Shown in pieces: positions 42,640 to 49,744 of a DNA stretch of 64,000 nt. This DNA is from Candidatus Aminicenantes bacterium. Lineage in GTDB: Bacteria; Acidobacteriota; Aminicenantia; Aminicenantales; Saccharicenantaceae. The notes beneath the pieces are model-generated. The model made no database searches. It was not told the origin of the DNA and saw only the letters and a list, made by a program, of their open reading frames with translations. The translations under genes were made by a program, and so were the position numbers. Where the stretch lies: contig CAVSAI010000020.1 of assembly GCA_963725825.1 (NCBI GenBank), positions 26,995-90,994 of the forward strand, in the 5' to 3' direction. Position 1 is the stretch's first letter, and each line of letters starts with the position of its first letter.

Positions 42640-43617
42640 ATGAGCCGGTCCGAACACGCCAAGCCGAAAAAGAGCGCTTCTTGCCGGCCGGCCGCATTCA
42701 AGGGCCGGAACGGCGAGGATCGCTACAAGGCCCTCCTCGAACAGCTTCCCGTCGGCGTCTACCGCACGACCGCCGAAGGCCTCATCGTCGAGGCCAATGC
42801 GGCCCTGGCCCACATGCTCGGCTTCAGGCGTCCCCGGGACCTGTTCACCCACAACGTCAAGGATTTCTATGTCCACGGCGAGGACCGGGCCAAGCACATC
42901 GTCAAGCTGTGCGCGAAGCGCACGGCCTTCCAGGAATTCGAGCTCCGGCGGATCGACGGCCGGAAGTTCTGGGCCCGGGATTTTTGCCGCAGCATCAAGG
43001 CCCCGGACGGGTCGATCATCCATCTCGACGGCATCCTCGTCGAAATCACGGAGATGAGGAACGCCGAGCGGCGCTTCCAACAGGCCGTGCGCCAGCTCCA
43101 GCTGTCCAACGAGAAGCTCGAGAACCTGTCGCTCACCGACCACCTGACCGGGCTCAACAATCGCCGGGGGTTCTATTCCTTCGGGCTGCAGCAGATGAAG
43201 ATCGCGAAACGGCTCAAGAAGGACAATTATCTCATCTTCATCGATATCGACAATTTGAAAGAGGTCAACGACACCTGCGGCCATGCCGTGGGGGACCTGC
43301 TTCTCCAGGGAATGGCCGCGATCCTCAAGACGACGCTGCGCGAGTCCGACGTCCTCGGCCGCATCGGCGGCGACGAGTTCGCCGTCCTGGCCATGCGTTC
43401 GAAGGGCCAGGGTGAACGGGGCCTTCCGGCCCGGATCGAGGAGGGCGTCCAAGCGTTTCGCCTCAAGAAATACCCGCGTCTGCGGCTGTCGGTCAGCATG
43501 GGCCTCGTCCGCATCGACCCCCAAAAGTACCAGCAGCTCGACGATTTCCTGTCCCACGCCGACTTCCTGATGTACCAGGAAAAAAGAAAGAAAGAACGAC
43601 AAGGAAAAACTCCATGA
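42640..43617 (+). CDS. PAS-GGDEF diguanylate cyclase
   Basis: PAS, TDHLTGLNNRR, RESD I-site, intact GGDEF; TTGACA at 42602-42607. Confidence 0.95.
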   Translation: MSRSEHAKPKKSASCRPAAFKGRNGEDRYKALLEQLPVGVYRTTAEGLIVEANAALAHMLGFRRPRDLFTHNVKDFYVHGEDRAKHIVKLCAKRTAFQEFELRRIDGRKFWARDFCRSIKAPDGSIIHLDGILVEITEMRNAERRFQQAVRQLQLSNEKLENLSLTDHLTGLNNRRGFYSFGLQQMKIAKRLKKDNYLIFIDIDNLKEVNDTCGHAVGDLLLQGMAAILKTTLRESDVLGRIGGDEFAVLAMRSKGQGERGLPARIEEGVQAFRLKKYPRLRLSVSMGLVRIDPQKYQQLDDFLSHADFLMYQEKRKKERQGKTP

Positions 43618-46550
43618 CCAAGCTCCGTTCCCTCTCCTTATCTCTCGCGGCTATCGCCGTGATTCTCACCTCCGGCCTTTTCGCGCCCGCTCAAGATGAC
43701 CCGCGCCCAAACGCGGCCCCGTCAGCAACCCTGGCATCCGCGCCGCGGCCGCTCGCGCTGCTGGACATCCTGGCCTGGAAATCGATCGGCTCGGCCGAGC
43801 TCTCCCCCGACGGGACCTGGTTCATGTACCGGCTCAGCCCGCTCGAAGGCGAGAGCGAGATCGTCTTGCGCCAGGTCGCCGGGACCAAGGAATACCGTTT
43901 CCCGATCGGCGAGGCCCCGCGCTACGGATCGTCCGCCCGCACGGGCTTCTCGGCCGACTCCAAGTGGGCCGCGTTCCTCGCCTACCCCGGGTCGAAGGAG
44001 ATGAAGGCGCTGCGGAAGGACAAGAAGAGGGTCATGACGGCGGCCGTCCTGGTCGACCTGGCCACGGGCGGGAAGACCGAGTTCGAGAAGGTCCGCGCAT
44101 GGGCTTTTTCGGGCGACAACCCCGGCTTCGTGGCCCTCCATCGCTATGCCCCCGAAAGCCAGGAGAAGGAGAAGGACAAGTGGACCGGCTCCGACCTCCT
44201 TGTGCGCCAGCTCTCTTCGGGGCAAGAGGTCAACATCGGCAACGTCTCGGAGTACGCTTTCGACAAGGCCGGGACGCGCCTGGCCCTGGCCATCGACGCC
44301 CAGGGCCAGGCCGGCAACGGCCTCCAGCTCCGGGACATGGCTTCCGGCGCCGTCTCGTCGCTCGATAACGACAAGGCCTCCTACAAGTCCCTGTCCTGGA
44401 CTGAGAAGGGGGAAGCCCTGGCCGTGCTCAAGGGCAAGGAAGACAAGGCCTATGAGGACAAGCTCTGGAGCGTCCTCGGCTTCTCCGGTTTCCGTGAGGC
44501 CCGAGGACCGCGGATGATCGTCTACGATCCGGCCGCCGACAAGTCGTTCCCGGCGGGAATGACCGTCAGCCCGGACAGGGCCCCGGAGTGGACGGAGAGC
44601 TTCGACGCCGTGCTCTTCGGCATCCACGAGGCCAAAAAGAAAAAGGACGCCGATAAAAAGGAGGGCGACCAGGCCAAGCCCGGATCGGATGCGGCCGCGG
44701 CGCCGGCCCCGAAGGTCGAGGACGTCGCCGACGAGGACATCCCCGACCTCGTGATCTGGCACGGTCAGGACGCCCGGCTGCAGTCCGAGCAGCAAGTCGA
44801 GGAACAACAGGACCGAAGCTTCAGCTATCTCGCCGAGTTCCGGGTCGGCAACAAGGCGTTCGTCCGACTGGCCGATGACGATCTTCGTTACGTCGAGCCT
44901 GCCCCCAAAGGCCGATTCGCCGTCGGCCAGGACAGGCGGGCCTACGAGCTCGACGGGAATCTCGACGGCCGAAGCTTCCGGGACGTCACCGTCATCGATA
45001 TGGCAACCGGCAAGCGGACCAAGGCCCTCGAAAAGAACCAATACTATTTCGGGACCCTTTTTGACGGGGCCCATTTCCTGTATTACGAGGACGGCCACTT
45101 TTTCACCTACGACATGGCGGGCGGCCGGTCCGTCAACATCACCAAGGACGTCCCCGCCTCGTTCTTCAACGAGGAGGACGACCACAACGTCGTCAAGCCG
45201 CCCGACTACCCGGTCGGCTCGACCAAGGACGGACGGAATGTCCTCCTCTCGGACGGCTGGGACATCTGGAGCGTTCCCGTCAGCGGAGCCGGCAAGGCCG
45301 TCAACCTGACCGCGAACGGGGCCAAGGACAAGCTCCGCTACCGGCGTCTGCGTCTCGATCCCGAGGAGAAGGCCGTCGACCTCGGGGAGGCCCAGTACTT
45401 CAGCGTTTACGGCGAGTGGACCAAGAAAGCCGGGATCGCCCGCCTCGAAAAGGGCCAGCCCGCCCCGGCGCTCTTGTTGTGGGACGATGCCGGATTCGGC
45501 AATCTGGCCAAAGCGAGAAAGGCCGAGGTCTACGTCTACGCCCGCGACACGTTTAAGGATTATCCCGACTTCGTCGCGGCGGACGCGCTCCTCCGCAACG
45601 GAAAAAGGCTCACCGAGGCCAATCCCCAGCAGAAGGATTTCCTGTGGTCGAGCGGCTCGATGCTTCTCGATTACACGAGCGCCAAGGGCGACAAGCTCCA
45701 GGCCGCGCTCTTCCTCCCGGCCAACTATGAAAAGGGCAAGAGCTACCCGACGATCGTCTACTATTACGAGAAGATGTCGCAGCAGCTCAACCGCTACGCC
45801 CAGCCCTCGGCCAACGGCTTCAATAAATCCGTTTACACCAGCAACGGCTACGCCGTCCTGTTCCCCGACATCACCTACAAGATCAACGACCCGGGCATGT
45901 CGGCGGTCTGGTGCGTCCTGCCGGCGATCGACGCGGCCGTGGACGCGGGCGTCGTCGACCGATCCAAGATCGGCCTCCAGGGCCATTCGTGGGGCGGCTA
46001 CGAGACGGCCTTCCTCGTGACCCAGGCCGATTTCGCCGCGGCCGTGGCCGGAGCGCCGCTGACCAACATGATCAGCATGTACAGCTCGATCTATTTCAAC
46101 AGCGGCTCGGCCAACCAGCCCATCTTCGAATCGAGCCAGGGCCGGTTCAAGGGCGGCTACTGGGACAATCTCGAGGCCTATCAGCGGAACTCTCCGGTTT
46201 ATTACGCCTCCCGGGTCAAGACCCCGCTCATCATCCTCCACAACGACAAGGACGGCGCCGTCGACTGGAACCAGGGCATCGAGTACTACAACACCCTGCG
46301 CCGGCTCAAGAAGCCGGTCGTCATGCTCCAGTACGTCGGCGAGAACCACGGCCTGCAGAAGCCGGCCAACCAGAAGGACTATACCGTGCGGATGAAAGAG
46401 TTCTTCGACCACCATCTCATGGGCAAGCCGGCCCCGGCCTGGTACACGGAGGGCGTCTCCTACCTCAAGCTCAGGGACTATCTCAAGGAGAGGGCCAAGG
46501 ACCTCAAGCCTGCGGAAAAAGCCCCAAAGAAGGACGCCGAGGGAAAGTAG
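43614..46550 (+). CDS. S9 family peptidase (prolyl oligopeptidase/dipeptidyl aminopeptidase)
   Basis: Signal peptide, beta-propeller, GHSWGG, DGAV, ENHG catalytic triad. Confidence 0.95.
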   Translation: MTKLRSLSLSLAAIAVILTSGLFAPAQDDPRPNAAPSATLASAPRPLALLDILAWKSIGSAELSPDGTWFMYRLSPLEGESEIVLRQVAGTKEYRFPIGEAPRYGSSARTGFSADSKWAAFLAYPGSKEMKALRKDKKRVMTAAVLVDLATGGKTEFEKVRAWAFSGDNPGFVALHRYAPESQEKEKDKWTGSDLLVRQLSSGQEVNIGNVSEYAFDKAGTRLALAIDAQGQAGNGLQLRDMASGAVSSLDNDKASYKSLSWTEKGEALAVLKGKEDKAYEDKLWSVLGFSGFREARGPRMIVYDPAADKSFPAGMTVSPDRAPEWTESFDAVLFGIHEAKKKKDADKKEGDQAKPGSDAAAAPAPKVEDVADEDIPDLVIWHGQDARLQSEQQVEEQQDRSFSYLAEFRVGNKAFVRLADDDLRYVEPAPKGRFAVGQDRRAYELDGNLDGRSFRDVTVIDMATGKRTKALEKNQYYFGTLFDGAHFLYYEDGHFFTYDMAGGRSVNITKDVPASFFNEEDDHNVVKPPDYPVGSTKDGRNVLLSDGWDIWSVPVSGAGKAVNLTANGAKDKLRYRRLRLDPEEKAVDLGEAQYFSVYGEWTKKAGIARLEKGQPAPALLLWDDAGFGNLAKARKAEVYVYARDTFKDYPDFVAADALLRNGKRLTEANPQQKDFLWSSGSMLLDYTSAKGDKLQAALFLPANYEKGKSYPTIVYYYEKMSQQLNRYAQPSANGFNKSVYTSNGYAVLFPDITYKINDPGMSAVWCVLPAIDAAVDAGVVDRSKIGLQGHSWGGYETAFLVTQADFAAAVAGAPLTNMISMYSSIYFNSGSANQPIFESSQGRFKGGYWDNLEAYQRNSPVYYASRVKTPLIILHNDKDGAVDWNQGIEYYNTLRRLKKPVVMLQYVGENHGLQKPANQKDYTVRMKEFFDHHLMGKPAPAWYTEGVSYLKLRDYLKERAKDLKPAEKAPKKDAEGK

Positions 46551-46574: not shown

Positions 46575-46690
46575 AGAGAAAAGCGCCGGGACCGGCCGGC
46601 CGGAGGATGGTTAGGAACGCTGGCTGGCGAGGCGCCAAGGTTTCAAAGGAAAAGGAAGCGGGGCTAAGGAGGATCCCTCTCCAGCCAGCG
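46575..46690 (-). ncRNA. Candidate small RNA (~115 nt)
   Basis: Begins at a 10 bp stem CGCTGGCTGG/CCAGCCAGCG just after a consensus promoter; CU-rich loop; GC hairpin and U-tract at the 3' end; no credible ORF. Confidence 0.6.
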
Positions 46691-46695
46691 AACTC

Positions 46696-46725
46696 ATTAT
46701 ATTGCCGCAATTCCGGTCTTGTCAA
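46696..46725 (-). promoter_or_regulatory. Consensus sigma70 promoter TTGACA-N18-TATAAT
   Basis: Reverse strand reads TTGACA AGACCGGAATTGCGGCAA TATAAT. Confidence 0.8.
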
Positions 46726-46844
46726 TCTGAAAGTGTCCAATTTAGGAAATTTTACTCAAGGGCGCTTCGGGCAGGGGCCGTCTTGATTTTTGGCAGGCCT
46801 AATGTATACTAATTTTGTAGGATTAAAGAGAACGGGAGTCATCA

Positions 46845-47879
46845 GTGCCGACGAAAGTGAAGATCGTGATCCTCGCCGCGGCGACGTTCCTCGGACTTGC
46901 CGCCTGGCGAGGCCTGAACGCCCTGGCCGGGCCGGACGTGGCCCGGATGGCGCTTGTCTCCCAGGGAGGGTCGGACATGTCGCAAAAAGTCAAGAAGTCG
47001 GAAAAGGAATGGAAGGCCGCCCTCACCCCGGAGCAGTTCGACGTCATGCGGAAGTGCAGCACGGAGCGGCCGTTCACCGGCAAATATAATGATTTTTGGG
47101 ACAAAGGGGTCTATGTCTGCGCCGGCTGCGGGGCGCCCCTGTTCCCCTCGGAGTCGAAGTACGAGCACGGCACCGGCTGGCCAAGCTTCACGGCGCCCGT
47201 CGACGAAAAGGACCTCGAATACCGCGACGACTACTCGCTCTTGACCAAGCGGATCGAGGTCCGCTGCGCGAAGTGCGGCGCCCACCTGGGCCACGTCTTC
47301 GATGACGGCCCGGAGCCCACGTTCCTCCATTACTGCGTCAACTCCGCCTCCCTGGACTTCAAGCCCGAGTCGGCCGACAAGGTCAAGGGCCCCGCGGAGG
47401 CCGCGGCCGCGCCGACGGAGACCGCGACGTTCGCCGCCGGCTGTTTCTGGGGAGTCGAGTACAAGCTCGGGAAGATCCCCGGCGTCGTGTCGACGGTCGT
47501 AGGCTACACCGGCGGCAAGACGGTCGCCCCGACCTACGAGGAGGTTTGCACGGACAAGACCGGGCACGCCGAGGCCGTCCAGGTGACCTTCGATCCGTCC
47601 AAGGTGGGCTACGCCGACCTCGTCCGCCACTTTTTCACGATCCACGACCCGACCCAGGTCAACAAGCAGGGACCCGACCAGGGGACACAGTACCGCTCGG
47701 CCATCTTCTTTCATGGCCAGGCCCAGAGGGAAACGGCGCGCGAGATCATGGACGAGCTGGAGAGATCCGGGAAGTACAAGAAGCATCTGGCCACCGAGCT
47801 CGTCCCCGCTTCGGTTTTCTACAAGGCAGAGGAATACCACCAAAAGTATTTCGAAAAGCACGGCGTCGTCTGCTACTGA
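46845..47879 (+). CDS. msrAB: Bifunctional methionine sulfoxide reductase MsrB-MsrA
   Basis: GTGWPSF, HLGHVFDDGP, YCVNS (MsrB); GCFWG, GHAEAV, AEEYHQKY (MsrA); N-terminal signal peptide. Confidence 0.96.
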   Translation: MPTKVKIVILAAATFLGLAAWRGLNALAGPDVARMALVSQGGSDMSQKVKKSEKEWKAALTPEQFDVMRKCSTERPFTGKYNDFWDKGVYVCAGCGAPLFPSESKYEHGTGWPSFTAPVDEKDLEYRDDYSLLTKRIEVRCAKCGAHLGHVFDDGPEPTFLHYCVNSASLDFKPESADKVKGPAEAAAAPTETATFAAGCFWGVEYKLGKIPGVVSTVVGYTGGKTVAPTYEEVCTDKTGHAEAVQVTFDPSKVGYADLVRHFFTIHDPTQVNKQGPDQGTQYRSAIFFHGQAQRETAREIMDELERSGKYKKHLATELVPASVFYKAEEYHQKYFEKHGVVCY

Positions 47880-48304: not shown

Positions 48305-49744
48305 ATGGCAGCTGAATATAAATATAGGAGCGGCGAGGAGCTTCTCGATATCATCCCCCGCACGTCCCCTGCCAAGCTATTTGGGGACGATGACGAGGCC
48401 TTCTCCGGCCCCGAGGCCCCGTTGGGGGCCCGGCTGGGGGAACCCAAGAACGGCAACGGCCACGGCAAGGGCCTGCATTCCCCGGAGGACATCGAACAGA
48501 CCGCGGACCTGGTCAAGATCTATCTCCGGGAGATGGGCAGCATCCTGCTCCTTTCCAGGGACCAGGAGATCAGCTTGGCCCGGCGCATGGAGCGCGGCGA
48601 AAAGGCCATCCTCAAGGCGCTCGTCAGGACGCCTTACACGCTCGACGAGCTGGTGTCCCTCGAGGCCCTGCTCAAGAAGACCCCCGAAGCGTTCGTCAAA
48701 TACTTCAACATGGCCGAGGACAGCTTCTCGGACGACAGCCTCGAGGCCCGAAGGAACGAGATCCTCGAGAGGATCCACAAGACCCGGGCCCTGTGCGCCC
48801 GGCTGATGAAGTTCCGGCCGCTCGTCCGCAATCGGTTCGCCCGCGGGCGGCTGGCCGTCCGGATCGTCAACATGGCCCGCGAGCTCGAGCTCAAGCCCGA
48901 GTTCCAGGACCGGATCGTCCAGGCCGTCCAGATCCGCTTGAAGGAGAACTTCAAGAACGCCTCCAAGCAGGCGCGCAGGGACGACAAGGCCATCCTCCAG
49001 GCCATCCAATCGGGCCGACGGACCCGCGAGCGGGCCAAAGGCGACCTCGTTTCGGCCAACCTGCGGCTGGTCGTGTCGATCGCCAAGAAGTATCAAGGCC
49101 GGGGCTTGCAGCTTCTCGACCTCATCCAAGAGGGCAACATCGGCCTGATGCGGGCCGCGGAGAAATTCGACTACCGGCGCGGGCATAAGTTCTCGACCTA
49201 CGCGACCTGGTGGATCCGCCAATCGATCACCCGGGCCATCGCCGACCAGGGCCGGACGATCCGCATCCCGGTCCACCTGACTGAGACCATCCACCGCCTC
49301 AAGAAGATCTCCCAGGCGTCGATCCAGGAATGCGGCAAGCTGCCCAACCCGGATGAGCTGGCCCGCAAGATGAACCTGCCCGTCAACAAGGTCCTGGAGA
49401 TGCTCTACAGCTCCCAGGACCCCGTCTCGATCGAAACGCCGCTCGGGGAGAACGGCGAGGGCTCGCTCGGCGACCTGCTCGAGGACAAAGCCTTCCCCTC
49501 CCCGCCCGACACCGTCATCCACATCAATCTCCGCGAGCAGATCGAGGCGGCCTTGCGCACCCTGCCAGAGCGCGAAACCCTCGTCCTGAGAATGCGCTAC
49601 GGGCTCGGGGACGGGCGGGAATATACGCTCGAAGAGGTCGGCCAACACTTCAAGCTGACCCGGGAGAGGATCCGCCAGATCGAGCTGAAGGCCCTCAAGG
49701 CCCTCCAGCTTTCGGGCCCCGGTCAGAAGCTCAAATCGTTTTGA
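48305..49744 (+). CDS. RpoD/SigA-family sigma70 factor (no canonical region 1.1)
   Basis: [54 protein letters not shown]. Confidence 0.93.

Follow-up and report, generated by a model that had tools for sequence, protein, structure and literature searches.

A conserved 71-nucleotide RNA gene of the Aminicenantales whose C/U-rich loop probably pairs with the ribosome-binding site of a PilZ-like gene

The locus, its promoter and its neighbours

The window, by which we mean the whole 64,000-nucleotide stretch of Candidatus Aminicenantes DNA analysed here, carries on its minus strand a perfect TTGACA-N18-TATAAT promoter at 46725-46696 (12 of 12 letters matching), as had been claimed for it, with the -35 hexamer at 46720..46725 and the -10 hexamer at 46696..46701 and a transcription start predicted from the spacing at about 46689. 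No other site in the window is perfect, and 100 shuffles produced none; genome-wide, such sites number 11 against 0.2 per base-shuffled genome. Comparison of homologous loci revealed TTGAC to be invariant across 24 aligned loci and to lie 36–43 nt 5' of the conserved core in 109 of the 120 different upstream regions compared. The further claim that this promoter has no protein gene to drive also held, as the S9 peptidase gene ahead of it (43614-46550, plus strand) is convergent, and a small ORF was rejected because the single ATG in the locus overlaps the -10 box. Directly 5' of the -35 hexamer sits a semi-palindromic box, AAATTGGACACTTT (46730..46743, minus strand), in a region common to the promoter of a divergent msrB-msrA fusion gene (46845..47879, plus strand; own promoter-like site at 46783-46810). 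Retained in most genus-level homologues and missing from other families, this box is a possible regulator site.

Genes adjoining the homologous loci differ in both identity and orientation, the S9 gene not being a required neighbour, and no same-strand gene recurs 3' of the RNA across these loci. Given such variable neighbours, we regard the RNA as a stand-alone gene and no leader. Elsewhere in the window, at 48305-49744, lies a gene for a sigma-70-type factor with regions 1.2, 2, 3 and 4. At another locus (L047, G010:C127) msrBA and the promoter are present a second time, the RNA breaks off after its first 25 nt, and a foreign, AT-rich gene comes next; this is either a truncated duplicate or an insertion into the RNA gene.

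Extent, conservation and relatives of the RNA

Aligning the homologues delimited a conserved block of 64–73 nt with sharp edges, which here corresponds to a core small RNA of 71 nt (46619..46689, minus strand); the same span is covered by contigs of relatives in sequencing run X18. The RNA of roughly 115 nt first proposed for the locus is thereby shortened to about 71–80 nt, with conservation ending at 46619/46618. Its presumed 3' features, a second AUCCUCC (46608-46602) and a GC hairpin with U-tract (46600-46575), are present as described but fall outside the conserved RNA, in a non-conserved tail (46575..46618, minus strand) whose ATCCTCC is unique to the present genome among 133 distinct homologue tails. 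This tail is a possible terminator of the present copy, and the end-to-end helix of the RNA may itself act as a terminator stem.

Both the stem predicted between 46690-46681 and 46627-46618 and the two predicted C/U-rich loop motifs were located in their expected places. The strands of this closing stem, GCUGGCUG (5' strand, 46682..46689) and CAGCCAGC (3' strand, 46619..46626, both minus strand), are prolonged by a short GAGG/CCUC extension and form a family scaffold. A homologue search with covariation, the check suggested alongside the original prediction, recovered the core across the order, but the RNA's own stem proved too invariant for covariation to be demonstrable (78 of 500 shuffles scored equally high), and compensatory changes came from sibling RNAs only. 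Folding energy was modest relative to shuffles (z of -1.4 for 121 nt and -2.4 for 93 nt); this being weak evidence by itself, the case for an RNA rests on conservation.

That conservation is extensive. In a DNA search of 61 genomes, the core was found at 85–97% identity: 34 of 36 from the genus carry it, as do 10 of 24 from other families of the order, the latter at E 1e-14 or below. Strong covariance-model matches were confined to the order Aminicenantales, model R1 giving weak matches outside it in 3 of about 86 other genomes of the class and 4 of 150 genomes of the phylum, the one inspected being coding sequence. In a GTDB scan most matching records were labelled Aminicenantes, and some carry other labels. 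Searching the window against Rfam 15 returned no family at the gathering threshold and only noise (E 1.4) locally, and in the open-access literature we found no description of the RNA, which the supplements of large RNA-motif screens, beyond our reach, could list. Judged from these sequence comparisons, the locus is very probably a real RNA gene, nearly invariant across the order and uncatalogued.

Weaker model matches turned out to be siblings that share the scaffold and carry different G-poor loops. The defining pattern is a closing helix of GCNGGCUG...CAGCCNGC that bounds a loop poor in G. The window RNA itself shows it, and so do 182 of 201 Aminicenantales genomes, in 1–9 copies each and some of them in tandem, as against 4 genomes with the reversed pattern. 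Beyond the order, the pattern gave 4 G-rich chance matches among 401 genomes, and it gave 4 matches in viral contigs; the siblings have no match in Rfam. Most siblings add a 5' arm that pairs in fixed register with the bases just after GCUGGCUG (37 of 41, at least 6 bp), an arm that is missing from the hairpin type represented by the window RNA (no more than 5 bp in any of 32 variants). When the siblings are aligned, both partners have changed in 7 of the 9 arm pairs, a score that none of 500 shuffles reached. One pair of the closing helix occurs as UA, CG and GC, the rest of that helix varying little (6 of 8 pairs never vary). Such covariation in arm and closing helix argues for an H-type pseudoknot, which the siblings would form around their different loops. 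With the sibling model scoring the window copy at E 0.17, we read the window RNA, on this comparison, as a related hairpin type that is no full member of the pseudoknot family; four siblings nonetheless carry loop motifs resembling those of the hairpin type.

Two pseudoknotted siblings are present in the genome under study (G000:C41:41471-41554 and C24:18357-18449, both minus strand), and the core of the first is letter-identical in two genomes of other families (G054 and G056; three families in total). A target search for these two siblings in the present 70%-complete genome found none that stands out. A U-rich tail (at least 5 T in 10 nt) directly follows the closing helix in 70 of 137 hairpin-type RNAs and 35 of 74 siblings, the counts at a control position being 35 and 14, respectively.

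Predicted pairing with a PilZ-like leader and a candidate sponge

When the core is searched against its own genome by BLAST, the top hit apart from itself lies antisense over the ribosome-binding site (RBS) and ATG of a PilZ-like gene encoding 120 amino acids (G000:C29, 133255-133620, minus strand), where positions 46657-46641 of the RNA form 17 Watson-Crick pairs with the RBS. The pairing segment lies in a seed (46641..46661, minus strand) made of an invariant CCGCUUCCUUUUCC and a variable UUUGAAA, the latter co-varying with the target leader, and this seed covers the sole Shine-Dalgarno-like element before the ATG. Among 2338 predicted start regions (gene calling gave 2353 genes), that of the PilZ-like gene ranked first by longest Watson-Crick run (17, the next being 12), first by duplex energy, first by accessibility-corrected energy (-40 versus -32 kcal/mol), and tenth by best single helix with G-U pairs permitted. 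It fell outside the top 40 when every genome window was scored by raw duplex energy, a ranking dominated by GC-rich coding windows and uninformative for mRNA targets.

Extending this across genomes, we found orthologues of the PilZ-like gene in 42 of 43 chosen genomes. At least 10 contiguous pairs joined the orthologous start region to the same genome's RNA in 23 of 29 RNA-bearing genomes, the other 6 having fewer; the pairing reaches up to 22 contiguous pairs, with a median of 14 at the PilZ-like start versus 6 at the operon's next gene (25 genomes). Cognate combinations of loop and site outscored permuted ones in 20000 of 20000 permutations, a result not corrected for kinship among genomes; it holds too when each of the 22 genera contributes a single genome. 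G170, whose match was not the first PilZ-like gene, was left out of this test, and gene calls are uncertain for G041, G049 and G165. Examples of loop and site changing together include UUAAAAAC/GTTTTTAA, UUGAAAC/GTTTCAA, UUUUUC/GAAAAA and CUAAA/TTTAG; few trans-acting sRNAs are known to co-vary so clearly with another molecule. A site of 10–17 nt is also retained in 4 of 12 genomes with no detected hairpin-type RNA (G042, G054, G055 and G056), whose assemblies are fragmented and 91–92% complete.

Attention had originally centred on another part of the loop, the block GGAUCCUCCUUAG (46664..46676, minus strand), which resembles the 3' end of the present genome's 16S rRNA and is predicted to be unpaired. 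These properties would suit a broad anti-Shine-Dalgarno regulator that masks many RBSs, the PilZ-like site being one among many: AGGAGGA occurs in 89 of 2338 start regions, and many targets would account for the extreme conservation, for which, across all 71 nt, one target is insufficient. However, 5 of 23 distinct variants carry changes in this block, whereas CCGCUUCCUUU is invariant and the PilZ seed unaltered; no second start region comes near the top score, and the co-variation is with the PilZ-like leader. We therefore consider broad masking unlikely. The best-supported pairing is a long one that runs through the second motif and is specific to one mRNA; in the present genome the block is predicted to pair with the target's first codons, and also with a candidate sponge described below. 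What survives of the proposed new trans-acting translational regulator is a stand-alone RNA with a top-ranked, co-varying RBS target, generic anti-Shine-Dalgarno masking being less well supported. The RNA has its own promoter, no ORF and a locus apart from its putative target, and its complementarity to the start of an mRNA is both conserved and co-varying, as is expected of a trans-acting sRNA.

A scaffold and loop read by a protein or metabolite, with mRNA pairing secondary or incidental, would explain why 6 of the 8 scaffold pairs stay fixed though any complementary pair would do, why one sibling is letter-identical across three families, and why some genomes lack either site or RNA. Against such a role, which we judge quite improbable, speak the co-variation of loop and mRNA site, the absence of Ro60/TROVE and ProQ from all 5 genomes tested, and the lack of the fixed downstream gene that a riboswitch would have.

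The PilZ-like gene heads its operon, which also holds two paralogues and one gene of the LuxR type. Its product is 40% identical to that of the operon's third gene, which clears the PilZ cut-off, and 2 of 8 target orthologues give weak PilZ matches. PilZ domains that bind c-di-GMP are marked by RxxxR and D/NxSxxG motifs; most target orthologues lack both, which speaks against the target being a c-di-GMP-binding PilZ protein. A TCACC...GG(T/C)GATTGAC box occurs at G000:C20:33496, C29:133701, C30:11955, C41:38819, C43:98526 and C58:36204, preceding the target operon, the sponge candidate and, by eye, two further PilZ-looking and two receiver-looking genes. The genes behind this box likely form a regulon, perhaps controlled by the LuxR-type protein of the target operon.

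A second site complementary to the RNA surfaced unselected in both the model search and the genome scan, revealing a candidate sponge RNA at about 38815/38870-38945 of G000:C41 (L224:3815-3945, plus strand), between divergent genes and ahead of the promoter that serves an agmatinase-like gene. On the purine strand of the candidate, a promoter box resembling that of the target gene is accompanied by a core of GCCAAGGUU-N-GAAAAGG and, at the end, by a terminator-like hairpin with U-tract. The candidate is complementary to most of the loop, including the near-invariant and otherwise unexplained AACCUUGGC (46634..46642, minus strand), which matches the conserved GCCAAGGUU, and it prefers the hairpin-type RNA over the siblings. 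Besides the present genome, 26 of 68 further genomes in the family have the strict motif, which was found in none of the other families; two of these each have one genome with a looser copy in similar context (L524, L527). One genome, G048, has the motif and no hairpin-type RNA. The promoter box was seen in 21 of 21 copies and the U-tract in 19 of 21, and 12 copies gave duplex z-scores with the RNA of -4.4 to -7.3, values that are partly circular as copies were picked by their complementary motif. Against Rfam the candidate stayed below threshold (best E 0.0044, 24.5 of 50 bits). From this complementarity, the purine-rich antisense RNA likely titrates the sRNA.

The two pairings could be weighed differently. 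Pairing might activate or stabilise the PilZ-like mRNA, or the window RNA might mainly neutralise the purine-rich RNA, the roles then being reversed, and in several genomes the purine-rich RNA is indeed predicted to engage a larger part of the loop than the mRNA (-53 to -76 kcal/mol). In the present genome, the co-folding gain is -24.2 kcal/mol with the target mRNA and -18.5 with the sponge. Yet the seed covers the only Shine-Dalgarno-like element before the ATG, and the purine-rich RNA is found mostly in one family whereas the window RNA and the mRNA site are order-wide, leaving activation or reversed roles very unlikely.

Repression by RBS pairing is thus the reading we favour: the conserved 71-nt gene with complementary ends probably yields an RNA whose C/U-rich loop pairs with the PilZ-like RBS and blocks translation, repression being suggested by the position of the site only. 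In this scheme, the strong sigma-70 promoter would make the RNA from about 46689, and a closing stem of 8–9 bp would shield both ends, leaving about 55 nt as a guide that would cover the AAGGAA(G) site and, in the present genome, the first five codons as well. A divergent Hfq may help the pairing, as an Hfq-family gene was found in 5 of 5 genomes, above cut-off in 4, the present genome's match being weak (about 30 bits). A regulator acting at the TCACC...GGTGA-TTGAC box would switch on both the PilZ-like operon and the purine-rich antisense RNA, and titration of the sRNA by the latter would make a coherent feed-forward arrangement. If so, an uncultured, widespread order gains a concrete RNA circuit of sRNA, target, candidate sponge and shared promoter box, and a natural example of a fixed scaffold with exchangeable guide loops.

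Metatranscriptome contigs and relation to known RNAs

Small shares of the window were found in 24 sequencing runs, of which we examined 8, all as contigs. Run X18 covers the core alone, in two contigs (104 and 101 letters) from two relatives, whereas contigs of X2, X4, X8 and X19 cross the promoter, as DNA or read-through would; X1 and X11 leave the core uncovered and X3 covers it in part. Contigs passing through the promoter in 4 of 8 runs would be compatible with a DNA element, or a terminator of the convergent S9 gene, in place of an RNA gene. The coverage of the core alone in X18, the persistence of core and promoter beside unrelated genes in all orientations, and the covariation in siblings make that scarcely credible.

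In each X18 contig the opening 30 letters recur at the other end, corresponding to circles of 74 and 71 nt in which the 3' stem strand is joined to the 5' strand over 2 or 4 extra letters, the four extra letters of one contig being identical to the leader in the genomes of three relatives whose core measures 67 nt. Circular contigs were seen in 1 of 8 metatranscriptomes and may be a library artefact, such as template jumping by reverse transcriptase. No head-to-tail tandem copies exist among 136 genomic loci; in metagenome contigs a specific junction pattern gave no match, and a loose one gave at least 119, with no family member among the matches listed. RtcB, present in 5 of 5 genomes, tells little about circularisation because 10 of 14 controls also have it, and an Rnl-type ligase domain gave only weak matches, in 2 of 5 genomes. 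That the Aminicenantales use naturally circularised guide-like sRNAs, with an end helix for ligation, exchangeable C/U loops and a sponge feed-forward, is in our estimation doubtful.

Several known classes were considered and rejected. 6S RNA is a rod of about 180 nt with a central bubble, unlike the 64–73-nt core, which has no RF00013 match; the genome's SRP RNA (RF00169) lies elsewhere (G000:C29:76684-76782); a bacterial Y RNA was set aside as Ro60/TROVE occurs in 0 of 5 genomes, control genomes being positive, and a ProQ partner as ProQ occurs in 0 of 5; a cis-acting pseudoknot riboswitch disagrees with the occurrence of all orientations and with the convergent next gene here; and ARAGORN dismissed tRNA and tmRNA. 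Separately, the present genome, 70% complete, yielded no tmRNA (ARAGORN) and no 6S RNA elsewhere (RF00013).

RNA sponges are separately promoted RNAs complementary to an sRNA's seed. Unlike known ones, the present candidate, itself predicted, spans almost the whole loop and has a promoter box in common with the target operon. RsaE/RoxS and CyaR pair with RBSs in trans through a C/U-rich single-stranded segment, as do C-rich-loop sRNAs of the RNAIII type (PMC4615179). The window RNA differs from RsaE/RoxS, RNAIII and CyaR in having no sequence or model match to them, in its long pairing and in the absence of a conserved separate terminator hairpin.

As described in PMC4615179, the alphaproteobacterial cuckoo RNAs consist of 2–4 adjacent hairpins, each with CCUCCUCCC and with variable stems. 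The likeness to cuckoo RNAs, RSs0680 and alpha-r14 lies in multiple copies, C/U-rich anti-Shine-Dalgarno-like loops and a family defined by architecture (PMC4615179). By this definition, we rejected the window RNA as a cuckoo RNA, as it has one closing stem and no CCUCCUCCC motif, the Aminicenantales RNA being built on one invariant end-to-end stem or pseudoknot with one long variable loop. For a circular form, the precedent among bacterial sRNAs is DucS of Bacillus altitudinis, whose head-to-tail junctions join the transcription start to the 3' end in circles of about 165–200 nt, validated with RNase R and junction probes according to PMC10504365; the counterpart here is two circular contigs of 71–74 nt in one run, seen as contigs alone. 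Were the circle reading true, circular regulatory RNAs in bacteria would no longer be isolated cases like DucS but would include a family conserved throughout an order.
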